A stretch of 55,350 nucleotides of DNA, from positions 1-55,350 of the forward strand of contig CAYMAQ010000003.1 in assembly GCA_964388385.1 (NCBI GenBank), given 5' to 3'. The position numbers and the translations under genes are program-made. Below, piece after piece: positions 1-33,476 of this stretch. Position 1 is the stretch's first letter. Every line of letters begins with the position of its first letter. Below the pieces are notes generated by a model. That model worked only from the letters and a program-made list of their open reading frames with translations. It had not been told where the DNA came from and ran no database searches. This stretch comes from an uncultured Anaerolineales bacterium. Its GTDB lineage: Bacteria > Chloroflexota > Anaerolineae > B4-G1 > SLSP01.

Positions 1-28
1 TTCGTTTTCAGGAACGATATCCGGGTCC

Positions 29-922
29 TCAAGCAAACCCCAAGCGCACTTTGATCCCTTGCCAGGTTTGGATCAACGCTCGGGTCACCAGGCCGTCCTT
101 GTAAGCTGTGACCGGATATCCCTGCACCATCGCCTCCGTGACCACCGTATCAAACGGCAACCGGGCCGCAATCGTGATATCCTCTTCCTCACAGAACCGC
201 TCAATCTCCTCCGTCCGCGCCTTGCTCAGATCAGCTTTATTGATCACAACCATCGCCGGAACGTCAAAGTGCCGGGCCAACTGCAGGATCCGGGTTAAAT
301 CATGAACCCCGGAATAGGTCGGCTCGACAACCAACAGCGCCAAGCTCGCTCCAGAGGAAGCAGAGATAACCGGGCATCCGATCCCGGGCGGCCCGTCCAC
401 GAGAACCAACGGGCGGTTGTCATCCAAGGCCCGTAAACGCGCCTGTTGCTTAACCAACGTCACCAACTTACCCGAATTTTCTCCACCCGCAAAAAGATGC
501 GCGTGGTAAAGTGGGCCAAAGGGGGTATCGGATAGAAACCATTGACCGGTGACGGGCTCCTCCATCGTGATCGCCCCAACCGGACACCGATAACTGCACG
601 CGGCGCAGCCTTCACAAGCGATGGCATCAACGTGATAGGAAGCACCGGGAATGATCGCGTCAAACCGGCAAGCAGTCTCACACTCACCACATCCGATGCA
701 GAGCGCTGAGTCGATGGCTGCGAGCAACCCACTCGCAAAGTCATGACGTTCACACTCTCTGGATTGCAGCACCAATTCTAAATTGGATGCATCCACATCG
801 GCGTCTGCCAGCACCGTTGACATCTCACGACTAGCCAAATGCGCCAGCGCCGCCGTAACGCTCGTTTTACCGGTGCCGCCTTTCCCACTGAGTACAACGA
901 GTTGAGCAGGATTGTCAGCCAT
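29..922 (-). CDS. MinD/ParA-superfamily P-loop ATPase with inserted 2x[4Fe-4S] ferredoxin module
   Basis: 297-aa ORF. Walker A GKGGTGKTS near the N-terminus. Ferredoxin cysteine motifs CIGCGECETAC and CEGCAACSYRCP. The start overlaps the stop of the upstream paralog by 8 nt. Confidence 0.85.
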   Translation of the reverse strand: MADNPAQLVVLSGKGGTGKTSVTAALAHLASREMSTVLADADVDASNLELVLQSRECERHDFASGLLAAIDSALCIGCGECETACRFDAIIPGASYHVDAIACEGCAACSYRCPVGAITMEEPVTGQWFLSDTPFGPLYHAHLFAGGENSGKLVTLVKQQARLRALDDNRPLVLVDGPPGIGCPVISASSGASLALLVVEPTYSGVHDLTRILQLARHFDVPAMVVINKADLSKARTEEIERFCEEEDITIAARLPFDTVVTEAMVQGYPVTAYKDGLVTRALIQTWQGIKVRLGFA

Positions 923-1811
923 CAGCCATCCCCTCCGCCACCATCCGATTAATCCGACGATAAAGCTCGATAAAGGAGTCTCGATAGTCGGGCAAAGCTT
1001 CCATCAGAGAAATGCCGTCCGCGTAGGCCTCGGCAATGCGCCGATCCATGGGAATTCGCATAAGGATAGGAATGTCCTCCTCTTCACAAAATCGATCAAC
1101 ACCCGCATCACCGATCCCATCACGGTTAACGACAACCCCTACCGGCAGATTGAGCTCCTCAGTCGCAAGCTCGACGGCAATGCGGAGGTCGTGGAGACCA
1201 AAAGGTGTGGGTTCCGTGACCAACAACGCAAAATCGGCTCCCCGCAAAGTCTCCACCACCGGGCATGCGTTACCCGGTGGCGCATCCAGGATCACCACCC
1301 CCTGATCCTCGTCGTTGAGAACCCGCTGTTTCAACTGGCGGATAATTGGCGTTGCCATCGCCTCTCCCACATTGAGTTCGCCCTGCCCGAACAGGATAGG
1401 CGTTCCAGGGATAGTCCCCCAACTTATAATGCCCGTCGGATTGAGAACCTCGCGAATCGCCCCCTCCGGGCAGTTCGTCGTACAACTACCGCATCCGTGG
1501 CACAACTGTGGAAAGACCAACACCTGCTTACCCAACACGGCGATCGCATGATACGCGCAGACCTCACCACACGTGCCGCAGTAAGTACAACGCTCGAGAT
1601 CGACCTCAGGCGTCAAGAGCCCCACCTCCTCTTCGTGCTCGAGGGCGGGCTTGAGAAAAATGGCAGCGTTCGGCTCCTCGACATCGCAATCTAAAAACTG
1701 CACGGGAACAGGTTGCCCAAGACGGGAGGACGTAGCGATCGATAGGGCGAGATTCACCGCTACCGTCGTCTTTCCCGTACCCCCTTTACCGCTTGCAATA
1801 GCAATATGCAT
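915..1811 (-). CDS. MinD/ParA-superfamily P-loop ATPase with inserted 2x[4Fe-4S] ferredoxin module (paralog)
   Basis: 298-aa ORF. Walker A SGKGGTGKTT. Cysteine motifs CTYCGTCGEVC and CHGCGSCTTNCP. Same architecture as 29..922. Confidence 0.85.
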   Translation of the reverse strand: MHIAIASGKGGTGKTTVAVNLALSIATSSRLGQPVPVQFLDCDVEEPNAAIFLKPALEHEEEVGLLTPEVDLERCTYCGTCGEVCAYHAIAVLGKQVLVFPQLCHGCGSCTTNCPEGAIREVLNPTGIISWGTIPGTPILFGQGELNVGEAMATPIIRQLKQRVLNDEDQGVVILDAPPGNACPVVETLRGADFALLVTEPTPFGLHDLRIAVELATEELNLPVGVVVNRDGIGDAGVDRFCEEEDIPILMRIPMDRRIAEAYADGISLMEALPDYRDSFIELYRRINRMVAEGMADG

Positions 1812-1821
1812 GATATAGCCC

Positions 1822-2664
1822 CTACTCTATTTTGATTGTCACGGAGTGCCCGGCCCCACCCTCTCGAACGATGGAGGAATCGAACGTTTCTGCCACATCC
1901 TCCATAAAGGATTCACCGGAACAATGACCTAACCACACAACCTGGAGAGCATGCATATCTCTGAGACAATGGAGGGTTTGTTTGCGGGTCGCCGAATCAG
2001 CGTTGACCATATGGACCCCTCCTGCGATGCCAACAATGGACGGAAAAAGCCGGGTCCGCACTTTCTGGAGTGTATTGAGCAGACCGGCGTGGCAGCACCC
2101 ACAAACGACAAACCCACGCTCCTCCCCGAGGTCCAGGGCTAAAGACAGGTCGTCTTCATAGGGGTCCGCGATCGGCTTGCCGTTCCGAAGCACGTGATGA
2201 CGAAAGCTTCGCCCCTCCGGCTTCGGCCTAAGCTCAATTTCTCCCGTGGTCCAGATACGGTCGACGACTTCCACGGATCCATCGTCGAGACGTAAATCGA
2301 CCGCATCCGCTAGGGCAGCGCGCTCAATGGCAGGCCCCCGACGGACCAACCCCTTCGCGTCCTCACTGTATCGCACGCTAAAGATGCTTGGATGAGCGTA
2401 GACCGGTGTCGACGCCGGCAGAAGCGGGAGGAGCGCCCCTAGCCCTCCGGTGTGATCATCGTGCCCGTGACTTAAAACGACGGCGTCTAGATCGGAAGGG
2501 TCGAGTTCCAGCGCCTGCAAATTGTGGAGCAAAACCTCCCCACTCCCGCCCGTATCGAACAACACATGCCCGCCTTCCGTCTCGATCCACATCGCAAAGC
2601 CGTGTTCCGAGCGCAGCGGAGGTTGAGCCGTGTCGTCAACCACCCAGGTCAATGTAATCATCAT
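1822..2664 (-). CDS. MBL-fold metallo-hydrolase
   Basis: HxHxDH motif SHGHDDHTGG. The ORF-track start at 2676 is TTG; I chose the ATG at 2664, which is preceded by GAGGG, so the start is uncertain by 4 codons. Confidence 0.8.
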   Translation of the reverse strand: MMITLTWVVDDTAQPPLRSEHGFAMWIETEGGHVLFDTGGSGEVLLHNLQALELDPSDLDAVVLSHGHDDHTGGLGALLPLLPASTPVYAHPSIFSVRYSEDAKGLVRRGPAIERAALADAVDLRLDDGSVEVVDRIWTTGEIELRPKPEGRSFRHHVLRNGKPIADPYEDDLSLALDLGEERGFVVCGCCHAGLLNTLQKVRTRLFPSIVGIAGGVHMVNADSATRKQTLHCLRDMHALQVVWLGHCSGESFMEDVAETFDSSIVREGGAGHSVTIKIE

Positions 2665-2672
2665 CCGCCCTC

Positions 2673-3176
2673 TCAACTTTCAGAGTGTTCCACGTCATCC
2701 AACCGGGAACCGGCAGATGCAACTTGCTCGCGCAGGGATGCTACCTCCTCACGCAACCGACGAATCTCACCCCGCGTCTCTCCCTCTTCCACGTGAGCGT
2801 GCGTATGGGTACCTTCTCCCCCGCTGTCCTCCCGACATGGCGTCGCTTGGGTCAATTGACCGCCCACAACCATCTCAACTGCCCGACGTATGGTCCCTAC
2901 CGCGCCCGAGTAGGCGTCAATCTTCATCTGATCAAAGAGATCGATCGCCCGACGCCCCATACCCCCAGCCACCATCACCTGGGCACCTTGTTGCTGAATA
3001 AAATAGGGTACCCTACCCGGCTGGTGCTTGTTGAAATAGGGATTTGCCAGCACGTTGACGTCGACGACGGCGTGACCCTTGACATCGACCAGAGCATAAA
3101 AAGGACATCGCCCGAAGTGATGAGCGACGAGACCATCCAGCCCGTGCTCATCCTGAGCAGCAATCACAATCCGCAT
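2673..3176 (-). CDS. NifB/NifX-type (FeMo-cofactor-biosynthesis-like) domain protein with C-terminal coiled-coil tail
   Basis: MRIVIAAQDEHGLDGLVAHHFGRCPFYALVDV... matches the small NifX/NafY-like domain pattern. C-terminal heptad segment EIRRLREEVASLREQVAS. The first 51 codons of the ORF-track call (GTG at 3329) lie inside repeat copy A and were trimmed to the ATG at 3176. Confidence 0.75.
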   Translation of the reverse strand: MRIVIAAQDEHGLDGLVAHHFGRCPFYALVDVKGHAVVDVNVLANPYFNKHQPGRVPYFIQQQGAQVMVAGGMGRRAIDLFDQMKIDAYSGAVGTIRRAVEMVVGGQLTQATPCREDSGGEGTHTHAHVEEGETRGEIRRLREEVASLREQVASAGSRLDDVEHSES

Positions 3177-3309
3177 AATAAACGCCTCCTGTTTTCCATA
3201 GTATATCGGCTTCGTGATGCAAACAATTGATGAGAAACCGATGATAAAGTCACCTACGAACTGACCCGACAACGCGCCGGGGCCCTCCTTCCGGAGAGCC
3301 CCGGAGTTA

Positions 3310-3403
3310 CAGATCCGGACATAAAACACTAAACTTTTCTGTGATACCCATGCAAACGCAGAAAAGCTTTAGTCATTGATGATCAGATCCATAATCCACA
3401 TAC
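3310..3403. repeat. Intergenic repeat family, copy A (hairpin 3334-3341 / 3359-3366)
   Basis: Aligns directly with 13448-13541, 23573-23650 and 41082-41165. Begins CAGATCCGGACATAAAACAC, has a central stem CTTTTCTG/CAGAAAAG, and ends in the tail TGATGATCAGATCCATAA. Confidence 0.8.
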
Positions 3404-3410
3404 AAAGAGT

Positions 3411-3608
3411 CTACTTCTTGATCAAAGTCGTACCGCACTTCGGACACGTCAAGCGATAGCACGGCTCGCCGACCTGATGGGGTTTACTATAATCGCAATT
3501 CGGGCAGACGCACATACCGCCGGGACCCGAACCCGGTTGGTTACCGCCACCGCGACCACGCCCACCGCCACCTTGTCCCCCGCTGCCACCTCGTCCAAAT
3601 CTTCCCAT
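3411..3608 (-). CDS. Small Gly/Arg-rich zinc-ribbon protein
   Basis: 65 aa counted from the ATG preceded by GGAGG. G/R-rich N-terminus (GRGGSGGQGGGGRGRGGG) followed by CxCPxC...CPxC (CVCPNCDY...CPKCG). Confidence 0.6.
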   Translation of the reverse strand: MGRFGRGGSGGQGGGGRGRGGGNQPGSGPGGMCVCPNCDYSKPHQVGEPCYRLTCPKCGTTLIKK

Positions 3609-3636
3609 CGTGAGACCTCCTCTGAACCTATCCGGC

Positions 3637-3969
3637 TTACGCGCCGCCCCGATGCCTGCGCCGTCGTCGACCATCTTGTCTGGACGATCCCCGACGGTCT
3701 ATGTCCCCGCGACCAGACACTGCCTCCGAGGATGTAGAACCCGAGGATGAAAGCACCCCTACAGGGGTACTGGACTCCTGCAAAAACCGGAGCGCTAAAC
3801 GGCCTAAACTCGTCAAAAGATCGAGGCCTTTGGCCACAATCTCCGTTGTCCGCACTTTATCGACCGGGCGGGTCGTGGATACCGACCGCGATCTAACATC
3901 GATGATCTCATCGGGTTCGAGCACCTCAACCGCGCCCTCTTGCACCCGTTCAATGTCACTTTGGGTCAT
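3637..3969 (-). CDS. Hypothetical protein
   Basis: ORF on the same strand as the cluster, with its ATG preceded by GGAGGG. No recognisable motif; Arg-rich C-terminus. A competing plus-strand ORF (3701..4009) looks less protein-like. Confidence 0.35.
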   Translation of the reverse strand: MTQSDIERVQEGAVEVLEPDEIIDVRSRSVSTTRPVDKVRTTEIVAKGLDLLTSLGRLALRFLQESSTPVGVLSSSGSTSSEAVSGRGDIDRRGSSRQDGRRRRRHRGGA

Positions 3970-4023
3970 CAGATCACCCTCCTCTCCTGACACCAACCTA
4001 CCCCTTTGACGTAGCGCCCAAAT

Positions 4024-4599
4024 CTAACCGGTGAGTCGATCAACTTTATCCAATAGAGAGGCCACGGCTTCACGCAGCTCACTGACTTCTGCCTTGAGCG
4101 CAGCTAACTCTTCCTCAGGGGTTTCTTCTTCACCCGGGGTCGTATCCGACCCCACGGTTGAAGGGGCCGCACTTCCCATTGCAGACGGGGCCACCGCTTG
4201 CCGATCCAAACCAACTGTCGACCTACCTGAGCCGCGGCCCATTCCCATATGAGCGGGGCCGGTGGCATCCCCCATCTCGGCAAGGGTTCCGGCCTCTAAG
4301 GCATCTACGGCTTCCTGAACCGACATACCAGAAGCCCGGTAAAGCTGCACGCCGGCAGCGTCGAGCACCTGATAAGCATTAGGGCCGAGGTGACCGGAGA
4401 TAATGGCATCGGCTCCCTGCTCAACCACATATTGAGCCGCTTGAATCCCGGCCCCACTGCCGCTCATTGTGGCCTGGTTCTCCTGAGCCTCAACGGCCCC
4501 GGATTCCGTGTCTACAAAGACATAATAATTGCATCGTCCAAACCGAGAATCAACTTGAGAATCCGCCGTTGGCTCGATTGCACTGACCGCGATTTTCAT
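4024..4599 (-). CDS. NifB/NifX-type domain protein with Gly-rich linker and C-terminal coiled coil
   Basis: MKIAVSA...SRFGRCNYYVFVDTESG... NifX-like domain, then GMGRGSGR and EELAALKAEVSELREAVASLLDKV. GGAGG ribosome-binding site. Confidence 0.75.
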   Translation of the reverse strand: MKIAVSAIEPTADSQVDSRFGRCNYYVFVDTESGAVEAQENQATMSGSGAGIQAAQYVVEQGADAIISGHLGPNAYQVLDAAGVQLYRASGMSVQEAVDALEAGTLAEMGDATGPAHMGMGRGSGRSTVGLDRQAVAPSAMGSAAPSTVGSDTTPGEEETPEEELAALKAEVSELREAVASLLDKVDRLTG

Positions 4600-4679
4600 C
4601 GACTATAACCTCCTGTATATGAACGTAGTAGAAACGAAAGCTGACGCTTTAGATTGCGCGCGACAAGGGAAAGAATCGC

Positions 4680-5057
4680 CTACAGATCCCGATGAGCATC
4701 CAAGAATGCGCCCAACATACTCCGCAGTTCCTCAATCTCTACGGACCAATCGGCCAGGGCTTCCCGCCCCTCGTCCGTGATTTCGAAAACCTTACGCGGC
4801 GGCCCCTGAGCGCTATCCATATCCCAATCGGGCTCAATCCATCCCTGATCTTCCATATTCTGAAGTGCACGATACACTGTCTGTGGAGGTAATCCGGCGA
4901 TCCCAAACTCGGTCGATAGGCGCTCCGCCAGTTTGTATCCATGGGAAGGTTCCTGAGCCAACAATAACAACAACATGGGCTCGACAATCCGCATCCGGCG
5001 GCCCCAACGACGCTTGGGCCCCTGTCCGTGTCTCCAACCACCTCGACCTCTAGGCAT
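4680..5057 (-). CDS. PadR-family transcriptional regulator
   Basis: LLLLLAQEPSHGYKLAERL...TVYRALQNMEDQGWIE winged-helix signature of PadR. GGAGG ribosome-binding site. Confidence 0.85.
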   Translation of the reverse strand: MPRGRGGWRHGQGPKRRWGRRMRIVEPMLLLLLAQEPSHGYKLAERLSTEFGIAGLPPQTVYRALQNMEDQGWIEPDWDMDSAQGPPRKVFEITDEGREALADWSVEIEELRSMLGAFLDAHRDL

Positions 5058-5077
5058 TTTGATAACCTCCTGCTATG

Positions 5078-5106
5078 ATTGTATCGTATTATTCACATTA
5101 CGTCAA
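5078..5106 (-). promoter_or_regulatory. Sigma70-like promoter for the PadR-headed cluster
   Basis: On the minus strand: TTGACG, 17-nt spacer, TACAAT. It lies about 20 nt upstream of the padR ribosome-binding site. Confidence 0.5.
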
Positions 5107-5136
5107 TAGTGCTGCAAACCCAACCTCGAAATCCGT

Positions 5137-6999
5137 ATGAACCCCACACATGGATCCTATCACAAATCGCATCTATGCTTGTCTGTGCTTGCTAGAATTC
5201 TCACAACCTCTATAATGCGCGCCATGATGACAAAACGACATCTTGGACTCTTCGCAATTGCACTCGGTATTGGCGGCGACATCGCCCTGCTCATCATTGG
5301 ACGGCTCGGCGGTGGCGCCTGGACCGGCGTCGGGCCACTTGAAAGCGCAATGTTGATCGGCGGCGTGGCGCTTGCCCTCCTCGGATTGCCGCTGATCCGG
5401 CAGGCAAGCAGACCGGCAGCCGGGCCAGAGCCCCATCGATCCTCAGATCCTCAACCCGATTGGGCGTGGCCCGACCGTATCCTGGCCGGAATAGCCTTGC
5501 TTGCCTTCATCTTCTACCTCGCCGTTTTCGTTACCTACACCATCGACCTCTTTCGGTGGCCTTACGACTATGATCAGGGTGAGAGCTTAGAGCTGTACGA
5601 CGCCGTGCTTCACAGCCGGGGGGAATGGCCCTATCGCGACAGCAGCACCTATCCTTTCTATGCTTCTAACTACCCACCGGTCTTTCACCTCCTGAACGTC
5701 CTGGTCTTTCCGTTCCTGGGTAAGCAGCTGCTTTCGGGACGGGTGCTGTCATTCACTATCACGCTGCTAACCGCGACCGTGATTGGCCTCACCGTTCGCC
5801 GTCGCACCGGTGGGTTCTTCTTTCCTCTGATCTCGGGACTGGCCTATCCCGCCTCCAATTTCGTCTACCATCTGGGTCCCCTTTGTCGCCAGCATCTTAC
5901 GATGGTCTTTCTGGAAACGCTCTGCATCTATTTTATTGCGGTCTCGGATGACGAAAAACACGGCACCCGAAATACAATCATCGGATTGACGTGTCTTTTG
6001 CTGGCCGGGTATTCAAAGCAATTGGCCGTCTTCACGTCAGGTGCCGTGTTCGGATACCTGATCCTCCGTGATCCACGAAAGGGCTTCCGTTGGCTTTTCG
6101 CCTTTGGTATCGTTTTTGGCGCGGTCTTCCTGGCGATCAATTGGGCAACCGACGGATACTGGTGGATCAACACGATCGCAGCCAACGTTAATGCATACTT
6201 GGTTCCCCAGCTCATCGGCCTGACGAGAACCTGGTCGCGAATCCATGCCCTCTTTATCCTTATGGCGGTAGCTCTGACCTTTTATGAGGTTTACATCGAG
6301 CGAATCTCAATCTATTCGCTGTGGTTCGTCACCTCTATAGGCACGGGACTGATGTCTGGAAAGTGGGGAGCCGGTGAGGCCTACTGGGTGACCTCGGTAG
6401 CTGCGGCAATCATCCTATGTGGTTTTGCGCTTTCTCGATCTCGTCAATGGTTGATCAAGAATAACAAGGCTTGGTCACGCTGGGCAGCAGCTGTGTTGCC
6501 GCTGCTCTATCTGGTCCAGGCAACTCTTATGATCCATATGCCGACCGAAGGTCCTGTCTGGGGCACCGTTGCCGGAGTGCTGGGCATCAAAGGGCAGTCA
6601 TCCTATGCGGACTATGCCTACTACGATTCGGTGGGTTATACACAGGTCGGACATCGAATGAAGCCCCGGGACTACCGTGGTGGAGAGAAAATTATGGCCT
6701 ACGTCCGCGAGACAGAAGGTCCGATTCTGAGCGAAGAAGCAGCCTTTACAATGCTGGCGGGCAAACAGGTCGTGACCAATCCTACACAGTTATTGAATCT
6801 CTACAACAACGATTTATTGAACACAGAGAACCTGGAGGCGATGATCCGAGATCAGGCGTTCGAGTTAGTCGTGATGCGCGCCCAATTCTATCCTCCGCCG
6901 GTCCTCGCCGCGATCGGTCAGCATTACGGCCTTGTCGAACACGTACCGATGAATGGATTCACCTACATCATTATGAAACCCCTGAGCGAATCCCCGTAG
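5137..6999 (+). CDS. Polytopic membrane protein, GT-C-fold (ArnT/PMT-like) glycosyltransferase candidate
   Basis: 620-aa ORF with many hydrophobic helices, an early acidic loop (YDYDQGESLELYD) and a soluble C-terminal domain. No clear ribosome-binding site, so the start is uncertain (alternative ATG at 5215). Confidence 0.55.
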   Translation: MNPTHGSYHKSHLCLSVLARILTTSIMRAMMTKRHLGLFAIALGIGGDIALLIIGRLGGGAWTGVGPLESAMLIGGVALALLGLPLIRQASRPAAGPEPHRSSDPQPDWAWPDRILAGIALLAFIFYLAVFVTYTIDLFRWPYDYDQGESLELYDAVLHSRGEWPYRDSSTYPFYASNYPPVFHLLNVLVFPFLGKQLLSGRVLSFTITLLTATVIGLTVRRRTGGFFFPLISGLAYPASNFVYHLGPLCRQHLTMVFLETLCIYFIAVSDDEKHGTRNTIIGLTCLLLAGYSKQLAVFTSGAVFGYLILRDPRKGFRWLFAFGIVFGAVFLAINWATDGYWWINTIAANVNAYLVPQLIGLTRTWSRIHALFILMAVALTFYEVYIERISIYSLWFVTSIGTGLMSGKWGAGEAYWVTSVAAAIILCGFALSRSRQWLIKNNKAWSRWAAAVLPLLYLVQATLMIHMPTEGPVWGTVAGVLGIKGQSSYADYAYYDSVGYTQVGHRMKPRDYRGGEKIMAYVRETEGPILSEEAAFTMLAGKQVVTNPTQLLNLYNNDLLNTENLEAMIRDQAFELVVMRAQFYPPPVLAAIGQHYGLVEHVPMNGFTYIIMKPLSESP

Positions 7000-7124
7000 T
7001 ATCCCCACGGCAAGCCGAGTTTACCCGTCTTGTCGTCTAATAATCTCCCTCAAGAATACAGGGCATCCCATCTATTCGTTCCCACTTTGCACACACCCGA
7101 CCCCAGGACCATCAAAAGTGGGTA

Positions 7125-7145
7125 TATACTCGTTTTTGTCAGGCC
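7125..7145 (+). repeat. 21-nt copy of the tRNA-Glu promoter -10/leader segment
   Basis: TATACTCGTTTTTGTCAGGCC matches 17245-17265 (TATACTCCTTTTTGTCAGGCC) at 20 of 21 positions. Both copies are preceded by GTGG. Confidence 0.7.
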
Positions 7146-8551
7146 TAAGGAGCCTCATCGGACTCGGCGGCATGCTCTGCTGCGTAATCTGCACCCAGAA
7201 TGACGACCACGTCGTACTGAGCTGTAGGATTCTCCCCATTCACCACGGCCGATGGCGGTAGATCAAGCAAACGGAGAATTTGCTCGGCAGTGACAGGTTT
7301 CGCCCGATTCATAATGATCAGAGACGTATCATAATCCTGTCGATCTGCGTTCGCATAAGCCTGAATGGACATCCCATGGGCTTCCATATACTCCTGGGTT
7401 GCATAAGCCAATCCGGGTGCCAAGGTACCATTGAGCACCGAGACCGTGGCGTTCTCCTCCTCAATCGTCTGAAGATCGCCGTTGGAGACGCGCAGGCCAA
7501 AGACATCATCCCGGACTTCCCGGATTTTGTCCCGCAAGGGAATCAGAATCTGCATGTCATCGGGCGTTGTCTTCGGGAGCGTACACGTCTCATCGATCAC
7601 ACGGAACTGAATGTCATCAGGATCAACCTGGGTCGCCAAATTGGCCAACGCGACAATCTCGTCGAGCTGCAGATCTGGATCGACCTTTACCGAGCCCTCA
7701 ACACTCGACCAGATCTCCGGAGCGCGCGATGCCATCTGCGTAAGCGCTCCGACATCGGTCACCTGCTCCAAGATAGCCTGGACAACCTGCTGCTGCCTGC
7801 GAGCTCGGTCGAAGTCCCCGCCTGATGTATGGCGAACGCGGGCATACTTGAGCGCCATCTCCCCATAGAAATGGTGCGAGCCTGCTTCGATACGCAGTCG
7901 CTCGCAGCCGTAATCGGGAGTAGGATAACAGGCGTCATCGATAGTCTCAGGCACCTCGATATCGATCCCGCCGATCAAATCCACCATATCGACAAAAGCC
8001 TGGAAATTGATCCGCCCGTAATAGTCGATCTTCACACCCAGATTGTACTCCACAGTCTCCACCGACAGCGCAGGCCCACCACCGGGATGATTGTACGCGT
8101 CGCCCAAAGCGTGAGCCGTGTTGATGCGATTCTCGGTGTAACCCGGAATCGGTACCCACAGATCGCGCGGGATCGAAAGCACCCCCGCCTCCTGGGTAAC
8201 CGGATCCAGCGTCGCCAGGATGATCGTGTCCGTGCGCCAGAAATCCTCGGTCTGTGCCCGCTCATCGATGCCAAGAATGAGAACGGTCACGCGGTCGGTG
8301 CCGGTCCATACCGGCAAGGTTTCACCTTCGACCCGCTCAACGTTCGAGCTCTCTTCAGTTTGCGTTTTCTGAATCGTAAAATCCGGCAAAATATCTGAAT
8401 TTGCGACTTCCGAACGGACACGGGAGAAAACAACATAACCGGCGGAACCCGTCACAATGAGATAAATCAAAACGATCCCAACCTGAATGAGTGTCCGGTA
8501 AGGGATAGTCCGGGTCCGGGTCCGAGTCAAACCATCGACCTGGGAAGTCAT
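7145..8551 (-). CDS. LCP (LytR-CpsA-Psr) family protein
   Basis: N-terminal TM helix. VLILGIDER...RTDTIILATLDP...GVLSIPRDLWVPIPGY...RINTAHALG. Confidence 0.85.
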   Translation of the reverse strand: MTSQVDGLTRTRTRTIPYRTLIQVGIVLIYLIVTGSAGYVVFSRVRSEVANSDILPDFTIQKTQTEESSNVERVEGETLPVWTGTDRVTVLILGIDERAQTEDFWRTDTIILATLDPVTQEAGVLSIPRDLWVPIPGYTENRINTAHALGDAYNHPGGGPALSVETVEYNLGVKIDYYGRINFQAFVDMVDLIGGIDIEVPETIDDACYPTPDYGCERLRIEAGSHHFYGEMALKYARVRHTSGGDFDRARRQQQVVQAILEQVTDVGALTQMASRAPEIWSSVEGSVKVDPDLQLDEIVALANLATQVDPDDIQFRVIDETCTLPKTTPDDMQILIPLRDKIREVRDDVFGLRVSNGDLQTIEEENATVSVLNGTLAPGLAYATQEYMEAHGMSIQAYANADRQDYDTSLIIMNRAKPVTAEQILRLLDLPPSAVVNGENPTAQYDVVVILGADYAAEHAAESDEAP

Positions 8552-8603
8552 ATCAGAAACAACTCCTCAACCTCTTTTCTCAAGCGCCAGCCTGATCCCA
8601 ACT

Positions 8604-10001
8604 TTAACGATCCGGAGGGCCCTCATAATCATCCCCCAACACGATCGCGATATCATAATCGACCGCAGGATCTGATCGCTTGACGACGACGGTAGGGACC
8701 AAATCCAAGGACTTCAGGATCCTCGATAACGTCGCTGGTTTGTCGTGATAGGCAATAACCAGAGTGCTGGCATAATTCTGACGATCTGCATTGGCAACCT
8801 GGACCACATCGATACCCTCCTGCTCGAGATAGGTAGCCGTATTGCCCGCCAGTCCGGATCGTTCAGTGCCATTGAGTACAGCCACCGTCGCAATTTCAAC
8901 AGTCGGCGTCGGTAGCACCTCCGGTGTCTTCTCCTCCGGGGCCTCAATCGTTGGCTCCGAACGGAAGACATAATCACGCACCCCGCGCATCTTGTCGCGC
9001 AGCGGAACCAGTACCTGACCGCCCTCAGGTGTCACCCAGGATTGCGTACACGACTGATCGATCACGCCAAATCGAATAGTCTCCTGATCCACGGAAACGG
9101 CTATGTTCGCCAATGCAAGAATTTGATCCAATGCCAAATCCGTCTCAACCGAGCGTTTGAGAGTGTCATAGAGTTCCGGTGCTCCGCGAGCAAGATCTGG
9201 CAGCATCTCGTAGGAGGTAAGACGATCGAGGATTGCCATCATCACCTTCTGTTGGCGGTGCGCCCGATCAAAGTCGCTGCTGCCGTGCCGTGTCCTTGCA
9301 TACTTGAGCGCCATCTCCCCATTGAAATGATGCCAGCCTTGCTCGATATACAGTGGGTCGTAGCCATAGTGATGATCGGGATACGTAGGATCATCGATAA
9401 CCTTCTCAACGTAGATATCGACCCCACCAATCTGATCGACAAACGTTACGAACGCCTCAAAATTAACACGGATATAATAATCGACGGGCACACCCAAGTT
9501 ATACTCAATGGTCTCTACAGCCAGAGCGGGACCACCACCGGGATGATCATAAAGACCACCCAGAAAGTGTGCAGCGTTGATACGACGGTCCCCGTAGCCC
9601 GGTATGGGAACCCAAAGATCCCGGGGGATCGAGAGGACACCAGCCTGCTTGGTCTGTGGGTCCAGGGTCAACAGAATAATCGTATCTGTCCGCCAGGGCC
9701 CGGTCTCCTGGCTTCGTTCGTCCACACCGAGAAGAAGCACCGTAATCCGTTCCTCACCCACCCAGATAGGGAGGAGCTGCCCAAACGCGTAATCCACATT
9801 CTCGCTTGGCTCGCCTTTTTCCTCTCCAGCAGATACAACACCGGATCGGCTCAGATCACCTTTGAACCAGTTGAAGCCCAGGAAAGCAACGCCGCCTACG
9901 ATTGTCAAAAGGATAAAGATCAACACTCCCGTCGCGATCACAGGCAGCAAGCGCTTATGTCGACGTGCCGGATGCTTATTCACCATAGTGTATGATCCCA
10001 A
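8604..10001 (-). CDS. LCP (LytR-CpsA-Psr) family protein (tandem paralog)
   Basis: Same motif set (LLLGVDER, RTDTIILLTLDP, GVLSIPRDLWVPIPGY, RINAAHFLG). Colinear with 7145..8551. Confidence 0.85.
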   Translation of the reverse strand: MGSYTMVNKHPARRHKRLLPVIATGVLIFILLTIVGGVAFLGFNWFKGDLSRSGVVSAGEEKGEPSENVDYAFGQLLPIWVGEERITVLLLGVDERSQETGPWRTDTIILLTLDPQTKQAGVLSIPRDLWVPIPGYGDRRINAAHFLGGLYDHPGGGPALAVETIEYNLGVPVDYYIRVNFEAFVTFVDQIGGVDIYVEKVIDDPTYPDHHYGYDPLYIEQGWHHFNGEMALKYARTRHGSSDFDRAHRQQKVMMAILDRLTSYEMLPDLARGAPELYDTLKRSVETDLALDQILALANIAVSVDQETIRFGVIDQSCTQSWVTPEGGQVLVPLRDKMRGVRDYVFRSEPTIEAPEEKTPEVLPTPTVEIATVAVLNGTERSGLAGNTATYLEQEGIDVVQVANADRQNYASTLVIAYHDKPATLSRILKSLDLVPTVVVKRSDPAVDYDIAIVLGDDYEGPPDR

Positions 10002-11317: not shown

Positions 11318-12967
11318 TTACACTGGCAGGGACTGAACGATAATCTCCGGACGGTTCTTGGCCTCCTGATAGAAGAAATCAGAGAGAGACCGCTCCACCA
11401 CCCTCTCCGCGGTTTCCATCGGGGTGCCGGGACTGACCCCCCGCATCGCACCATAGAGAACCTCCAGTGCCTCCGGAACCATCCGCGCCATCACCTCCTC
11501 AGCGACGATTGCGTGACCGGTGATGCGCGGCGTGCCCACAAACCGACCCTCATCCTCATCATACATAAACGCGACAGTGCAGACCCCGGTATTGGCGAGT
11601 TCCTCACGGCGGTTGATCACGTCGTCCCCAAGAGACTCACCCACCCAACTCCCATCCACAAAGATATAGCCGCCGGGTATCCGTTCGCCGATCTCCATCG
11701 TATCATCGGTAAACCGAAGGACGTACCCATTTTCCACGGCTGCGATGTTCTTGTCGGGCACACCCACCTCGCGGGCAAGCACGGCGTGCAGTTTGAGATG
11801 TCGCAACTCCCCATGGATCGGTACGAAGAACTTGGGGCGCAGAATGCTGATTAACGTTTTCTGCTCCTCCTGACTCGCATGTCCGGAAACGTGCACGGGA
11901 GCCACCGGATGATAAATCACGTTCGCGCCCCGTTGGAAAAGCCGGTTGATGACCTCATGGACCGCCTCTTCATTGCCGGGAATAGTATGGGATGAGAGCA
12001 CAATCGTATCGCCCGGTACCACACGTAGCCACGAGTGGCGCCCTTTCGCCAGCCGACCCATAATCGAGCGGGGTTCACCCTGGGAACCGGTCGCAATGAT
12101 CGTCACCTTGTCCGGCGGCAACTGATTGATCTCACCCAGCGAAACCATCAGATCCGAGGGCACGTCGAGATATCCCAGGCGCCGCGCCATCCTCACGTTC
12201 TTGACCATAGACGTACCGGCGACCGCCACCTTCCGACCCGCTGCCTGCGCAGTATCCATCACCTGCTGAATACGGGAGATCAGCGAAGCGAAGGTCGCCA
12301 CAATCACGCGTCCCTTGGCAGGTCGAAAGACATCGCTCAAGGTCGCGTTGAGCGACTGCTCGGAGAGCGTAGTCCCCGGATGATCGGCGTTGGTGCTGTC
12401 CGAAAGTAACGCTAACACGCCTCGCTGGCTAAACTCCGCCAGTTTCGCGATATCGGTAGGCCATTCATCCACCGGGGTATGATCAAACTTGAAGTCACCG
12501 CTGTGCACAATCAACCCGTGGGGCGTGGTAATCCCCAAACCCACAGTGTCCGGGATACTGTGACAGACGTGATACGGCTCGACCGTGAAAGGTCCCAGAT
12601 GAATCTCATCGCCCGGCTGAAGGGTCTGTAACTTCACCCGTTTGAGGAGATCCTGGCGCAGGTTGACCTCGATCAGACCCCGCGTCAATCGTGTCGCATA
12701 AACCGGCGCGTTGAAATCCTCGAGAAAATGGCGCAGCGCTCCGATGTGATCCATATGCCCGTGGGTGATGACAATCCCCCGGATACGATCCTCTTTGCCT
12801 TCCAGGTAACGATAGTCGGGAATGATGTAGTCCACGCCGGGCATATCCCCCTCCGGGAACATCATTCCACAATCAATGATCATGATGTTGCGCCCATACT
12901 CCAGGGCCATCATATTCTTACCGACTTCCCCCAATCCGCCCAGGGGAATGATTTGCAGCTTCTCCAT
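11318..12967 (-). CDS. rnj: Ribonuclease J
   Basis: 549 aa. KLQIIPLGGLGEVGKNM N-terminus, HGHMDHIG beta-lactamase motif, beta-CASP-length architecture. Confidence 0.9.
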   Translation of the reverse strand: MEKLQIIPLGGLGEVGKNMMALEYGRNIMIIDCGMMFPEGDMPGVDYIIPDYRYLEGKEDRIRGIVITHGHMDHIGALRHFLEDFNAPVYATRLTRGLIEVNLRQDLLKRVKLQTLQPGDEIHLGPFTVEPYHVCHSIPDTVGLGITTPHGLIVHSGDFKFDHTPVDEWPTDIAKLAEFSQRGVLALLSDSTNADHPGTTLSEQSLNATLSDVFRPAKGRVIVATFASLISRIQQVMDTAQAAGRKVAVAGTSMVKNVRMARRLGYLDVPSDLMVSLGEINQLPPDKVTIIATGSQGEPRSIMGRLAKGRHSWLRVVPGDTIVLSSHTIPGNEEAVHEVINRLFQRGANVIYHPVAPVHVSGHASQEEQKTLISILRPKFFVPIHGELRHLKLHAVLAREVGVPDKNIAAVENGYVLRFTDDTMEIGERIPGGYIFVDGSWVGESLGDDVINRREELANTGVCTVAFMYDEDEGRFVGTPRITGHAIVAEEVMARMVPEALEVLYGAMRGVSPGTPMETAERVVERSLSDFFYQEAKNRPEIIVQSLPV

Positions 12968-13155
12968 AATCCTACTTTCAGTATTTTGATAACAGAACGA
13001 TCACAAAACGCGCTACCGTTGAATCTGTAGCGTGGGTGGCAGTTAGAATTTGGAGATATCGTAACATATTGCAGGTGACTGTCAAACTATTAACCGTCCT
13101 GCGGAAGCTGCATCTCATTCCTGTCGTTAGCAGCGGATGACCCGTGCCTACTCAG

Positions 13156-13410
13156 TCACTGAGAGCCCGAGTTATCTTGTGATTCGGTAGGGATGTCGGG
13201 GGCGGGGGCGGTCAAGACCTGCACTGAATCGGTCCGTTCATCCAGAAACCGATAAAGCGCTGGCAGATCGGCAAACCCCCGCCGTTCGGTGCTATACGGA
13301 TCTTCCAGCACAACCCGCCAGACCGAGCCCTCTGCAGTCTCCACCCGCCACAACCGTATCAGATAAGCCAGATACGGGGATACCATTGGCGCGTCCTCCT
13401 GTTTATCCAT
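13156..13410 (-). CDS. Small hypothetical protein
   Basis: 84 aa counted from the ATG preceded by AAGGAGG. The upstream 19 codons of the ORF-track call lie in repeat copy B. No recognised domain. Confidence 0.5.
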   Translation of the reverse strand: MDKQEDAPMVSPYLAYLIRLWRVETAEGSVWRVVLEDPYSTERRGFADLPALYRFLDERTDSVQVLTAPAPDIPTESQDNSGSQ

Positions 13411-13447
13411 AAAGGCCTCCTTACGATCGAGAGCGAAACGCGACCGG

Positions 13448-13541
13448 CAGATCCGAACACAAATCACTAAACGTTTCCGTGATACCTATGACAACGCAGA
13501 AGCGCTTGAGTTGTTCATGATCAGACCCATAACACACATAA
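13448..13541. repeat. Intergenic repeat family, copy B (hairpin 13472-13479 / 13497-13504)
   Basis: CAGATCCGAACACAAATCAC..CGTTTCCG[loop]CAGAAGCG..TCATGATCAGACCCATAA. Colinear with copy A. Confidence 0.8.
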
Positions 13542-17262: not shown

Positions 17263-17337
17263 GCCCCCATCGTCTAGCCTGGTCTAGGACACAGGCCTTT
17301 CAAGCCTGGTACATGGGTTCGAATCCCGTTGGGGGTA
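17263..17337 (+). tRNA. tRNA-Glu (anticodon UUC)
   Basis: GCCCCCATCGTCTAG... cloverleaf. Anticodon loop CTTTCAA, T-loop GGTTCGAATCC, 7-bp acceptor stem. CCA is not encoded. Confidence 0.9.
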
Positions 17338-17391: not shown

Positions 17392-18582
17392 TCACACCCG
17401 TCGTCCCACCTTACTCACAGCCTTGCGGCTGAACCGCAGCCCCAGACCCTGCTGCTCGGCGAACGCCTGGAACACGCGGTAGAATCGCTCGCGGTCCCGG
17501 AGTGTAATCACCGCCACAGCATCCGCGGTCTCCACCGCGTAGGGATAGCCGTTCCCCACCACACACTCGGCACGCACGATATCCACCACCCGATCCAGAA
17601 TCCCCACGTCCAACACCCACCGCGGGATGTCCAGCCGCACGGGCGGACGATCCGCCGTTGTCTGCAGGTAGACGAGAACGACGCGATCGTAGTATTTACG
17701 GCCCCCGACCGGCTCCAGGTCGTCGTTGCGCGCGCAGACCCATGCCGTGGAACGATCGCCCCATTGCATATGCCGGGAGCGCAAAATCGCCCCGTCGCTG
17801 ATCCGATCCGAGATCGACCGTCCGGTCAAAGCATCGAGCATTGAAACCAGATCGTTGGCATAGCTTGTGTCCACGTAGCCCACCAGCGGAATTCCGATAT
17901 CCTCCGAGGCATCCAACAACGAGAGGATAGCGCCAACGTACAATCGCTGTCGCGCGGGCTGCATCTGTTGCGCAAAGGAGAGAATCAGAGACCCATCGAA
18001 GAAACAGACCGGCCTTTCATCCAGGGGAGAGCCGCGGTAGCCCTCCATCAGGTCAATCAATCGCTCACATTCACCGGTGAACCGCCGTAAGTTAACCCGC
18101 CAATCGGGAAAGTCCATATTCCCAGCGTCCTCGTCGCTCAACTCATCCGGCGCGAGAACCTCGAAGACCAGATCCTTCACATAATCTGCACCCGGATCGT
18201 GGGGATTGATAAACCAGCCGATCTGGACGGCCCCCACCGGGATAGAAAGCGTCTTCGTGGGCGTAATCTGCGAGCCATCGACCGCAACGGTAGGGATGCC
18301 CAGTAACGTCTCCCGCGCCCAATCGCGGGCCTGCTGGTGGCTCTCCCAATCGTGAGCGAAGGGTACGACCAGGTCGGGATACGCATCGTGCTCGAAGGTA
18401 GGCTTGGCGCCCGGCCATACGACACCTGCCAGCGCAGCCTCGATCTCCTCACAACTCAACCCCTCCAAGGTTTCCAGAGCCGACTGATAGGCCAAGAGTA
18501 CATCCCGGATGCGAGCTTCGTACCCGGAAAAACGATCCGCTTTGGCGGCCAACGCCGCCAGTACCCGCTGCTGATGGAACAT
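17392..18582 (-). CDS. NurA-like nuclease (putative)
   Basis: 396 aa. Two DGS motifs typical of the NurA domain (TVAVDGSQI and CFFDGSLIL). The start lies 4 nt after the sbcC stop. Confidence 0.55.
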   Translation of the reverse strand: MFHQQRVLAALAAKADRFSGYEARIRDVLLAYQSALETLEGLSCEEIEAALAGVVWPGAKPTFEHDAYPDLVVPFAHDWESHQQARDWARETLLGIPTVAVDGSQITPTKTLSIPVGAVQIGWFINPHDPGADYVKDLVFEVLAPDELSDEDAGNMDFPDWRVNLRRFTGECERLIDLMEGYRGSPLDERPVCFFDGSLILSFAQQMQPARQRLYVGAILSLLDASEDIGIPLVGYVDTSYANDLVSMLDALTGRSISDRISDGAILRSRHMQWGDRSTAWVCARNDDLEPVGGRKYYDRVVLVYLQTTADRPPVRLDIPRWVLDVGILDRVVDIVRAECVVGNGYPYAVETADAVAVITLRDRERFYRVFQAFAEQQGLGLRFSRKAVSKVGRRV

Positions 18583-18585
18583 AGA

Positions 18586-21500
18586 TCAAACCTCCACGTG
18601 GCTGACACCGTCAACCTTGCGAACCCGAATGACGTGATCCGTGTCCTGCTCGAACGTGTCATCGTGGCTGATGACGAAAAGTTGGTTGAAGCCCTGGATC
18701 CCCAAGATTTGTTCCGCGAGATTATCGCGGCGGCGGTCGTCGAGATTGGCCGTCGGCTCGTCAAAGAAAGCGACACCAACCGTCGAAATCTCCTGAAGGA
18801 GCGCCAGCCGGACTGCCAGCGCAGCTGCCATCTGCTCTCCCCCGGATAGCTGTTGGAAGGAGCGCTCGCGCCCGCTCTGCTTGAGGATGATGTCGTAATC
18901 CTCGGTCCAACGAAGCCGCGTCGTATAATCCTGCATAATCTCACGATAGAGACGATCCGCACGCAGAGAGATGACATCGACCAGACGTCGAGTGATCACC
19001 GGGCCCGCCTCCCGAAGCACGCCGCGCAGATAGCCCAGGAGGTTCTGTAAAGCTTGCAGGGTATTCCGTTCATTCTCGGCGTCTTCCATCTCCGAAGCGA
19101 GGGCCTGCAGGCGATCAATCTCCACTTCTATCTCTGCTAGCCGGCCCCGACGCTGTTGAACGCGTTCCTTCAATGCGGCGAGGCTCTCCCTGAGATCCCC
19201 TCGCATATCGCTGGCTGTAGCGTGAGCTTCGGGATCGTAGGCTGCACGGACGCCCTCTTGAGCATCTCGAGTCGCTTCGAGCGCCTTCTTTGCCTCAGAG
19301 AGATCGGATTTCACACTCCGATACGTCTCTCGGTAATCCTCCAGGGCCTCCGACTGCCGAAGGTGTGCCACATAGCGGCGATGATCCTCCTCATACTGAT
19401 TTAAAGCCGACCGCTCTGCCTCGATACGCGCATCCACGTCACTGTATGCCTCCAACTCATCTTCTAACGTCGATACCTGGGTCTTCGAAGCCCTCAGACG
19501 GGACTCAACCTCGTCCCTGGCATGGATGACGTCCGGGCGGCGCTCTGCAGTATCGCGGGCCCGCTGATAGTCCCGCCGGGGATCGCCCAGGGACTCTAGC
19601 TGTCCGTTGAGTTGGACGACCCGATCCGGAGCGTCACTCAAGTCCGTCACGACCTCACGTTGTGCCTCCACAACTGAAGCTTGGACGGTGATACGTTCAT
19701 GCAACTGATCCAGCTCGGCAGGTCGGGGAAGGGCACCAAGCCGCGAATCGCGAGCCACCACTTCATCTTGGAGTGCAGTCCGAAGTTCTGTCTTGATATC
19801 CAACGCTTCCTGTAGCTCCGCAGCTGCGCTCTTGATATCCTCACATTGTGAGGCAAGCCGGGAAACCGTCCCACGCGTCTCCTCCACGGAAGTTCGATGG
19901 GACTCCACGTCGGTTTTCTGCACGATAATCCGCTCAACAAGCTCCTCGGCTTCTTTCGACCTGGGTAAGGTCTGAAGATCGACCTCCAGGTCGCGGATCT
20001 CTGCGAGCGTGTCGCGCCGTTTCCTCTCCAAAGCGTCACGCTCGGACTTGAGATCGTCCAGGGCCTCCCGGCAACGCGCCAGTTGGGAGCCATACGTGGC
20101 TAATAATTCCTCCCGATGTCCCGGCGTCAGTGTCTGACCACAGACAGGACATACCGCTTCCTCTTCAGCACCGGTCTTCAGCGCTGCAATGCGCGCCTCA
20201 GTCTGCTCGAATGTCGTGCGGTGGGCGGCTTGATCAGCCGTGATGGTCTCGATCTTGGCTCCCAACCTCTCCAGATCACCTCGCTGTTCGGAGAGTGCCT
20301 GCACGACTTCTCTGCGAGACTTGAGGCCCTCGTTGATCTCGGACTCCCGTTCGCGCAAAGCTTCTAAGGACTGCTCAGCATGCGCTAACGCTGCCCGCAT
20401 CTCCCTCAGCCGCACCTCAGCCGCCATCCGTTCGGAATTCAAACGCGCGTGTTCGGTCTCTTTCGAGCTCACTTCAGCCGCAAGATCCTCCCGGTCGGCT
20501 TCGACGTCAGCGAGATCTTCACGCAATTTCGAAAGTTCGCGCTCAACGGCTTCACGCTCCTGGATTTCTATCTCTAACCGCTCCATCTGAGACTCCAGCT
20601 GGGCGAGGCGTCGCTCCTCATCCTCGAATGAACGGCGGGCGTTTTCCAAGCGATCAGCCTGCAAGCGAGCCTTATCAAGGGCCTCCTCGAGTTCGGTCTG
20701 CCGCTCCACCTTGGGCTCCAATTGAACCGCCCTCTTCTGGGCAGCCTCGATGGCCTCAAGTTGCACGTTCAAATCCGCCAACCGCTGCGAGGTCAGGGCG
20801 AGGTCTTTCTCCAGGGCCCGCAGATTCTCCTGTAATCGGTCGCGCTCGGCTCGGTCGGATTCTAGAGCGGTGAGGGTATGCCGGGTCGATTCGTAGACTC
20901 GAAAGCCTTCTTGCGTCTCCTCGATGATGTCCCGAGCGGCCTCGGCCTCTGCCAAAGCCTTTGAGACATCCTCCTGACGACGTTTAAGTGCTTTGATTTC
21001 TACTTCCGCCTGAGAGACAACCTGGTTCAAAGCATCAAGCTCACTTTTGGCCTCATCAAAGATCGTGAGACGGGCGGTCACATCCTCGAGCTCCGCTGCT
21101 TGCTTCTCTCGCTGCTGCTCTTCCTTCTCAATCTCTGCCGACAACAACGCCGCCCGATGTCGAGCACCCGGAAGGGCCACGACCTGTCCCTGGAGCCCAG
21201 CGATAAGTTTCTCCTGCTCCGTGACCTGTAGTTCCAGCCATCGTTGGGGCTCGCGCAGCCCACTCCAGGCCTGCTCGTATTCATCAACGCGCAACAGAGG
21301 ATTGAACACATCCTTGCGCCGGCTTGGAGTCTCCAGAAAGGCAGCCGTCAGCAGTCCTTGAGGTACTCCGACCGCATCTCGAAAGAGCGTTGCCAGATCA
21401 GCGTTGGGCTCCATACCCAGGAAATCCTGGAGCCACAGCATCGTCTCCGCCTTTCCATCGGTCATCCGTTGAACGAGCTCGGGATCGTGGACGTAAAAAG

Positions 21501-21771: not shown

Positions 21772-21772
21772 C

Positions 21773-23062: not shown

Positions 23063-23328
23063 CTCACTCCTCAAAAATCCCGCTCCAATTGAACACTACC
23101 ACGTCAAGGATAATCCGACCCAAGCCGGCATAATCTCTGACAGGCCTATGGGATCGATTAGCCAACGCTTAACGGTCTCGTAACAAACAATTTCGTTGCA
23201 GAAACTTGTTTTCTTAACACATTTGTTATGAACACAACTGACACGGACCCGTAACTTCGATTTGAGAGGATCATAGTATAGTAAGAATGCGTTCATTTCA
23301 ACGACCTGGACTTGAAAAGGGGGCATGT

Positions 23329-23568
23329 ATGCAAACCCATACCAACGCCCGGGTGACCTTTGTCACGCCCAGCCATGCCATCGCCCTTGCCAATGCTATC
23401 TATTCGCTTGACGAACCCTGGCGCACCCGTTTCATCGACCTGATTAGCAAACGCGTCCCAGCCACCATGACTACAACACCTTCGCCGGAAGAGATCGCCG
23501 GTTGGCTGCAGAATCGAGTACTCTATCGTGACATGCGGACGTTATTCCGTGCCTGGACGCACCAGTGA
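23329..23568 (+). CDS. Small hypothetical protein
   Basis: 79 aa counted from the ATG preceded by AAGGGGG. No recognisable motif. Confidence 0.35.
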   Translation: MQTHTNARVTFVTPSHAIALANAIYSLDEPWRTRFIDLISKRVPATMTTTPSPEEIAGWLQNRVLYRDMRTLFRAWTHQ

Positions 23569-23572
23569 ACGA

Positions 23573-23650: not shown

Positions 23651-23662
23651 AAGGCGAGGGTA

Positions 23663-33352: not shown

Positions 33353-33399
33353 GCGATCACCTTATCGGCGGATACATAGATGCCGGTATCGCATCAACG

Positions 33400-33440: not shown

Positions 33441-33476
33441 CCCGGGATGCATAAGCATCAAGTTCCGCTTGGTCAA

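Follow-up and report, generated by a model that had tools for sequence, protein, structure and literature searches.

A short intergenic repeat of Anaerolineae genomes, probably a new family of bacterial MITEs

Four short intergenic segments in the DNA analysed here are probably copies of a non-autonomous transposable element, an ~82-bp bacterial MITE of an Anaerolineae lineage; we give this reading a probability of about 0.78. The window, that is the whole stretch under study, comprises 55,350 nt of an uncultured Anaerolineales bacterium (Chloroflexota; Anaerolineae) and corresponds to positions 1-55,350 of contig CAYMAQ010000003.1 (GCA_964388385.1). A preliminary description of the segments had proposed a multicopy sRNA, a REP/MITE-like element or a protein-binding terminator module, and it is the MITE half of the second proposal that the observations favour. 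The element occurs in several copies, its ends are terminal inverted repeats (TIRs) flanked by TA, its sites are filled in one genome and empty in another, it exists in two sizes, and it can form a long hairpin. Together with the small size and the A+T richness, these features led us to file it as a new MITE family of Anaerolineae. The kind of MITE is ordinary; this family has not been described before. In practical terms, the element provides a defined small mobile repeat for Anaerolineae, a mostly uncultured group known only from MAGs; it can serve as a marker of variation between strains, and intergenic regions that contain it may be misassembled or misannotated. The biological value is modest.

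Copies in the window and in other genomes

The four window copies lie at 3310-3391, 13448-13529, 23573-23647 and 41082-41162 (copies A, B, C and E) and share one orientation. The segments aligned end to end in the preliminary description began at 3310, 13448, 23573 and 41082, and these starts agree exactly with the element boundaries derived here; its end for copy A, at 3403, overshoots by about 10 nt, the core ending at 3391 and the flanking TA at 3393. The 5' box AGATCCRRACAY that it had singled out occurs exactly four times in the window, always on the plus strand, and the tail motif SATGAYCMRAYCCAYA exactly five times, in the four copies and at 33480. When up to two mismatches are allowed, the tail motif has 7 matches against 1.8 expected, a count reached by none of 100 shuffles. 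Direct reading likewise confirmed the 18 of the first 20 nt common to A and E, the repetition of CAGATCC in A (3310 and 3385), and the quoted stems and distances to stop codons. Mean column identity among the four copies is 68% with the flanks and 78% after trimming, pairwise identity ranges from 54 to 80%, and the G+C content of the copies is 37-48% versus 56% for the window. The only shared reading frame has in-frame stops in three of the four window copies. A leader peptide or small ORF in the frame shared on the minus strand (MDLI(I/M)N...) was rejected, as the frame stops at different places in A, B and E and is shifted in C and E.

Copy A, including its flanks, spans 3308-3393 on the minus strand (core 3310-3391, 82 nt). 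It has TA on both sides (3308-3309 and 3392-3393), scored 105 and 102.6 bits with the two covariance models described below and folds with z = -4.28. It lies between two minus-strand genes, 3411-3674 and a Nitro_FeMo-Co gene starting below 3290. The first of these (L027:19446-19643 in a relative) encodes a small glycine-rich protein with a C-terminal CxxC...CxxC motif. It has a Nitro_FeMo-Co gene on either side, is retained by all relatives and gave no Pfam match. A 218-aa ORF at 2673-3329 (minus strand) has its GTG start inside copy A, its Nitro_FeMo-Co domain begins only at residue 65, and its counterparts in relatives are 165-199 aa long. The N-terminal extension is probably an artefact of the inserted element, which in this way accounts for spurious ORFs. 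Copy B (13446-13531, minus strand, core 13448-13529) has TA only at 13530-13531, scored 97.2 and 87.9 bits and folds with z = -2.84. Copy C (23571-23649, minus strand, core 23573-23647, 75 nt) is without 7 nt of the inner stem, has TA only at 23648-23649, scored 87.7 and 73.2 bits (z = -0.61) and lies between convergent genes. The most diverged copy, E (41080-41164, minus strand, core 41082-41162), has no TA flanks, scored 85.8 and 61.7 bits (z = +0.65) and also has convergent genes on its two sides. It borders a variable island, similar to restriction-modification or defence genes, that begins right after it (41217-49750, minus strand). The island contains two very large ORFs with weak matches to Eco57I-type methylases (42289-45534 and 46682-49750), together with partner genes; the block 45726-49750 is replaced by a ~215-aa gene in the related locus L085 and differs in L084.

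Loci from other MAGs and metagenome contigs were fetched for comparison and carry L-numbers. A covariance model (R1) was built from the four window copies only, and a second model from eight copies. R1 recovered the four copies in the window at E <= 1e-14, in agreement with the eight-copy model, and neither model had any other match in the rest of the window above the significance of E = 5. The preliminary description had proposed scanning related genomes with such a model, and R1 does find independent copies there: copies that it had never seen scored 73-88 bits, with E of about 1e-11 to 1e-14. A pattern scan of genome contigs, with one genome per species, returned 26 loci. Three of these are real, L011, L013 and L015, all in Anaerolineae or Anaerolineales MAGs, with R1 scores of 79-88 bits; the other 23 are chance matches, the number expected from the information content of the pattern. 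The matches L006, L014 and L019 were among those taken as chance, the covariance model scores supporting L011, L013 and L015 instead. A strict three-block pattern had no match in the metagenome scan, and a looser one gave 40 loci, in which the covariance model recognised a single real copy, L040 (73 bits, metagenome contig). Three pattern scans of the viral collection (IMG/VR) yielded chance or coding matches only; the viral matches to ATGGATCTGATCATCAA are a common ORF start encoding MDLII and not copies of the element. BLAST searches of PLSDB plasmids and of a phage collection gave no match to the element.

A further copy was found at L027:9817-9963, in the close relative GCA_034437735.1. 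At 147 nt (core ~143 bp) it is a longer variant with an internal insert of ~60 nt, whereas the cores of the short copies measure 75-82 bp. Nine independent copies from five sources were thus available, four in the window together with L011, L013, L015, L040 and the L027 variant; the sample is small. Going by the names of the MAGs and of the RNase J homologues, all sources belong to Anaerolineae. The long variant was also seen twice in L028 (positions 1-10000 of an ENA ERZ922773 contig), along with a BTAD regulator and a NurA fragment, each likewise present twice; this contig carries an inverted duplication with its mirror around position 5140, which is most likely an assembly artefact.

The next same-strand match of R1 in the window after the four copies is marginal (33427-33500, E = 5.7). 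A remnant copy of the element at 33427-33495 (minus strand, copy D) is doubtful. It contains the exact tail motif and a TIR-like sequence, TATGGATCGGGTCATCAA, at 33478-33495, with 16 of 18 TIR positions matching, and a stretch of ~35 nt is similar to the element's 5' half. The two models, however, gave it E-values of only 5.7 and 5.5, a 3' TIR is not recognisable in it, and its TIR is absent from L079. A 2.7-kb composite element bounded by 30821 and 33495 was rejected, the match at 30821 having a mismatch and lying inside an HSP70-like ORF. Overlapping copy D, at 33396-33436, is a strong hairpin (CTCCAATCTGTGACGGGG...CCCGTTCACAGATTGGAG) downstream of the gene at 32417-33352, one arm of which resembles the 3' TIR of the element. 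Since this hairpin is conserved in L079 with compensatory changes (CTCCGGTCTGTGGCGGG...), it is probably the real terminator of that gene.

Ends, target sites and insertion polymorphism

Read on the minus strand, the copies start with TGG(A/G)TCTG(G/A)TCAT and finish with ATGTC(C/T)GGATCTN. These ends form imperfect TIRs, TGGATCTGGTCAT and ATGTCCGGATCT, both of which contain GATC. When ATGTCCGGATCTA is reverse-complemented, it agrees with TGGATCTGGTCAT at 10 of 13 positions, or at 13 of 20 when the comparison is extended. In copy A, the 5' TIR (3379-3391, minus strand) reads TGGATCTGATCAT and pairs with the 3' TIR at 3310-3322, which reads ATGTCCGGATCTG and is the plus-strand 5' box CAGATCCGGACAT of the preliminary description. 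The GGATCT core is self-complementary if G-U pairs are allowed, which explains why the box had appeared to be repeated in the tail. The anatomy is 5'-TGGATCTGGTCAT ... ATGTCCGGATCTN-3' on the minus strand of the window, enclosing an A/T-rich inner hairpin with a conserved loop and bordered by TA on each side. The dinucleotide TA stands immediately outside the ends at 13 of the 18 flank positions (background 0.030, binomial P about 1e-16), and on both sides in five of the nine copies (A, L011, L013, L015 and L027).

MITEs mobilised by IS630/Tc1-mariner elements have a strict TA target that is duplicated on insertion (2 bp) and TIRs like those of an IS630-family element. From the TA flanks we infer an enzyme of this kind: a transposase encoded elsewhere in the genome, most likely a TA-targeting DDE enzyme of the IS630/Tc1-mariner type acting in trans, would bind both ends of the element, move it into intergenic TA sites and duplicate the TA. 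Against this stands the failure to find a parent: the window, ~780 kb of compared loci, IMG/VR, PLSDB and the phage collection yielded neither an IS nor a transposase with matching ends, a weak negative in that loci and collections were covered rather than whole host genomes. Solo or distant TIR pairs and transposase domains were likewise absent from the window and the compared loci. Many accepted bacterial MITEs are without a known parent (PMC2229807).

Syntenic loci of relatives were fetched via homologues of RNase J, DUF3604 and GH127. RNase J is encoded at 11318-12967 (minus strand) and has its closest named homologues in Anaerolineae MAGs; the RNase J of L027 is 97% and that of L070 94% identical to the window's, and L077 and L078 are contigs of the same strain as the window. 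Site A is filled in the window and empty in L027 and L070, with flanks that align on both sides of a clean gap. Copy B is absent from L027 and L070 together with the adjacent 84-aa ORF. Copies identical to A and B are present in L077 and L078. At site C, a whole ~590-nt segment of the window is replaced by a 64-nt gap in L079, and site E is filled in the window and empty in L084 and L085. Conversely, a copy in the 5'UTR of the RNase J gene (rnj), downstream of a conserved promoter-like sequence, is present in L027, whereas the window, L070, L071 and L105 lack the element there. The syntenic region of relatives with a 79% identical RNase J has no copy, and among all the relatives compared no copy is conserved at an orthologous site. 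This polymorphism is the decisive evidence. With sites A, B, C and E empty or absent in relatives and the rnj site filled in L027 only, gains or losses of the element keep pace with the divergence of strains; it is mobile or variably present, and is not a conserved gene, RNA gene or regulatory site.

The promoter and leader regions of the RNase J gene were compared at 12968-13100 (minus strand) of the window, L027:9730-10000, L105:3400-3656 and L071:170-347. The promoter-like sequence TTGAC(A/T)GTCACCTGCA(A/T)T(A/C)TGTTA(C/G)GATAT is conserved across the relatives. The leader itself is an insertion hot spot: L027 has the MITE there, while L071 and L105 have inserts of ~60-130 nt that are unrelated to it.

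At the two well-aligned sites, site A and the rnj 5'UTR, the filled allele is longer than the empty one by exactly the element and a further 2 bp. The predicted pre-insertion sequence of the rnj site, GGGGCGTTTAGTCATCGGTTTG, matches L070 at 20 of 22 positions with zero indels. These comparisons are consistent with a TA target duplication at insertion. The empty alleles of the relatives, however, read TT at the rnj site and CA at site A, not TA, so that a TA duplication is indistinguishable from an element that carries one terminal TA itself. The latter arrangement, target plus terminal TA, would fit single-stranded DNA mobility. In that case a Y1 transposase of the HUH class (IS200/IS605 or RAYT type) would recognise a REPIN/PATE-like hairpin on one strand and insert it next to a short TTA target, which is not duplicated; the left flank reads TTA in seven of the nine copies. 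TA on both sides is nevertheless the classical signature of bacterial MITEs (PMC2229807), and the ends, as inverted repeats, form one helix together instead of two separate subterminal hairpins. Nor was a Y1 transposase found among the proteins scanned from the window and the tested loci.

The low identity of the copies within one genome (54-80%) speaks against a MITE, being unlike a recent burst from one master copy. Copy A is 84-85% identical to copies in other MAGs, which it resembles more than it does B, C or E; nevertheless, relatives with 94-97% RNase J identity have neither A nor B. Either several old sub-lineages must be active in parallel, or the element must move between genomes.

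Copies B and C adjoin strain-specific small genes, and an integron attC site had been considered for this reason. Integron attC sites carry RYYYAAC ... GTTRRRY core sites at their ends and occur in tandem cassette arrays, usually near intI. The ends of the element are without R'/R'' cores, a GTTAAGY being internal and in only four copies; the copies lie 10-17 kb apart among housekeeping genes with neither array nor integrase, and at site A and in the L027 leader nothing but the element has been inserted, cleanly. The attC candidate was therefore rejected. The small gene at site B, 13156-13410 (minus strand), directly downstream of copy B, encodes 84 aa (MDKQEDAPMVSPYLAYLIRLWRVE...), has a good ribosome-binding site (TAAGGAGG) and no Pfam match; a relative of 93% identity has a different small ORF in its place (L074:26-250). 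The strain-specific ~590-nt segment that holds copy C (23075-23662) lies between the DUF3604 gene and an Mre11-like (Metallophos) gene, which are only 64 nt apart in L079, and includes a 93-aa ORF (23287-23568, plus strand), also with no Pfam match. Beside it, at 17392-23074 (minus strand), is a DNA-end-processing cluster that is conserved in relatives and encodes NurA, a 1079-aa Rad50/SbcC-like ATPase with a zinc hook, and the Mre11-like phosphoesterase; a tRNA gene (17263-17337, plus strand) adjoins it.

Folding, strand and transcription

Six of the nine copies fold far better than their dinucleotide shuffles (z = -2.8 to -5.3). Copies C and E fold no better than shuffles; both are the most diverged and are without intact TA flanks. 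The proposed pairs are paired in 85.5% of cells, a figure that drops to 26-49% if the 3' partners are shifted by 1-3 columns, which shows that the palindrome is real. In copy A, the inner hairpin (3334-3366, minus strand) has the plus-strand arms CTTTTCTG (3334-3341) and CAGAAAAG (3359-3366) around a conserved 17-nt loop region. The hairpin had been called covarying, which is an overstatement: both-sided changes do exist in 5 pairs among the nine copies, but 79 of 500 shuffles did as well or better, and the covariation score was matched or beaten by 30 of 500, so that covariation is not above the shuffle controls. Non-significant covariation of this sort is what ancestry from an inverted repeat gives without selection on structure. 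The inner stem is A/U-rich and the loop measures 13-17 nt; conservation is higher in the internal loop region, CATGGGT(A/G)TCAC, than in the inner stem, and this region could be a candidate subterminal binding site.

Under the MITE reading, the inverted-repeat ends would cause a read-through transcript to fold into a long stem-loop as a by-product, and this stem-loop may secondarily alter the stability or processing of the host mRNA. A more direct role was considered as an intrinsic or protein-dependent terminator module common to several genes. Copies C and E do lie between convergent genes, a few nt after stop codons, and the minus strand has a T-rich stretch after the inner stem. An intrinsic terminator has a G+C-rich stem and a short loop with a U tract directly after it. 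No terminator-like site was detected in any of the four window copies, and an A/U-rich stem with a loop of at least 13 nt is of another build. Termination would moreover be harmful where copies lie in the rnj 5'UTR or inside operons (site A, and L013 upstream of rplL). The relatives that are empty at site E retain only a conserved G+C-rich hairpin of their own, which the window also keeps beside copy E. We thus consider the terminator module of the preliminary description very improbable indeed.

The two strands are not equivalent. In the outer helix, 131 of 144 cells (91%) can pair on the minus strand but 102 of 144 (71%) on the plus strand, the minus-strand fold is the more stable in all eight short copies, and most TIR mismatches are wobble-compatible on the minus strand only. 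The preliminary description had taken the plus strand as the RNA strand on account of a single T-G pair; this is contradicted by the better overall pairing of the minus strand. The co-orientation it had reported holds for all four window copies, with a two-sided probability of only 0.125, and the GC skew of the region is uniformly negative. Five contexts are informative on transcription, and in each of them the neighbouring gene or genes have the better-pairing strand as their sense strand (two-sided P about 0.06): copy A lies between two minus-strand genes, the core of copy B ends 37 nt upstream of the start (13410) of the small ORF 13156-13410, the L027 copy is part of the rnj leader, the L015 copy separates two co-directional genes, and the L013 copy is directly upstream of rplL. 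The rplL product was confirmed as L7/L12 by Pfam, and the open frame upstream of the L013 copy, which runs off the start of the locus, is presumably rplJ. Uniform orientation and sense-strand bias are suggestive only. The insertions in the RNase J leader and upstream of rplL indicate that such elements are tolerated within highly expressed transcription units.

A strand and orientation bias is not predicted by plain double-strand cut-and-paste and so counts against a MITE, and the asymmetry keeps two other explanations in play at low probability. The better pairing and more stable fold of the minus strand, together with the co-orientation and the uniform skew, would suit the single-stranded mobility introduced above. 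Part of the asymmetry, however, comes from the G-U self-complementarity of GGATCT, and the ends carry neither the GTAG/CGTC head nor the 20-40 bp palindrome of a REP; we regard this explanation as improbable. The second explanation is a functional RNA module, that is a cis stabiliser, processing site or regulator, or a multicopy sRNA, selected for its RNA structure on the minus strand. The G+U-rich strand being the sense strand in five of five contexts would fit it, as would the one-sided changes in the outer helix, which mostly keep G-U pairs on the minus strand, the few compensatory pairs and the conserved loop. Five contexts yield only P of about 0.06, however, and zero copies are conserved at orthologous sites, covariation stays within the controls, C and E no longer fold better than shuffles, and the host genes are functionally unrelated. 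No promoter consensus was found in the copies. Rfam 15 at the gathering threshold matched only the tRNA at 17263-17337 in the window, with no family for the element, and in E-value mode copies A and B gave only matches of <=16 bits and E > 1. Its proposal of a multicopy sRNA, if conserved, does not agree with copies that differ from strain to strain and lie inside operons and 5'UTRs. An RNA module appears, at best, equally improbable.

More tentatively, and with the odds well against it, the family may be strand-specific, either through single-stranded DNA transposition via a hairpin of the G+T-rich strand or through survival of copies only where that strand is transcribed and the stem-loop acts on the host mRNA. 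If true, this would explain the uniform orientation, the five of five sense-strand contexts and the TIR mismatches that are compatible with wobble only. Action on mRNA, if true, would mean that the transcript is processed or stabilised, the copies in the RNase J leader and upstream of rplL being examples. A bias of this sort, if genome-wide, would be a handle on how such elements are mobilised or selected, a question that is open for most bacterial MITEs.

Comparison with known small repeats

Bacterial MITEs are shorter than 200 bp and A+T-rich, with TIRs, TA termini, a target duplication and long stem-loops, and variants may differ by an internal ~50 bp (PMC2229807). All cores of the element are below the ~300 bp taken here as the upper size for a MITE. 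PMC3733652 and PMC2817692 describe REPs as palindromes of 20-40 bp that have a GTAG or CGTC head and occur in association with a RAYT gene. REPs are mobilised by RAYT transposases. Both REPs or REPINs and the element are hairpin-forming intergenic repeats for which a strand-specific structure is plausible, but neither such heads nor a RAYT gene were seen here: the ends read TGGATC and GGATCT, without GTAG or CGTC, no Y1 transposase was found among the proteins scanned, and the copies are not 20-40 bp palindromes. REP proper, the other half of the REP/MITE proposal, was therefore rejected.

The ERIC or IRU sequences of enterobacteria are likewise intergenic imperfect palindromes with TA termini (PMC2229807). 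They are transcribed within mRNAs, and their orientation relative to the gene can matter (PMC2229807). ERIC, however, has a length of 127 bp, and different species largely share it at orthologous sites, whereas the copies described here are strain-specific. RUP of Streptococcus pneumoniae resembles the element in its ~100 bp, short TIRs (9 bp in RUP), insertion at TA and intergenic location (PMC2229807). Its proposed mobilisation in trans by IS630-Spn1, a TA-targeting IS630/Tc1-type element, is the mechanism that we consider most likely here (PMC2229807). RUP differs in having a known parent IS with matching TIRs; none was found here.

The Correia or NEMIS elements of Neisseria resemble the Anaerolineae element in being small non-coding repeats with TIRs and terminal TA, with sites filled or empty between strains, and with a long stem-loop if co-transcribed (PMC2229807). 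They differ in that there is no sequence similarity, the TIRs measure ~13 bp and are imperfect here versus 24-26 bp in Correia, no IHF site or promoter was identified here, and the host phylum here is Chloroflexota. As in Correia, there are two size classes set apart by an internal block of ~50-60 bp, 107 and 155 bp in Neisseria and ~82 and 143 bp in Anaerolineae (PMC2229807).
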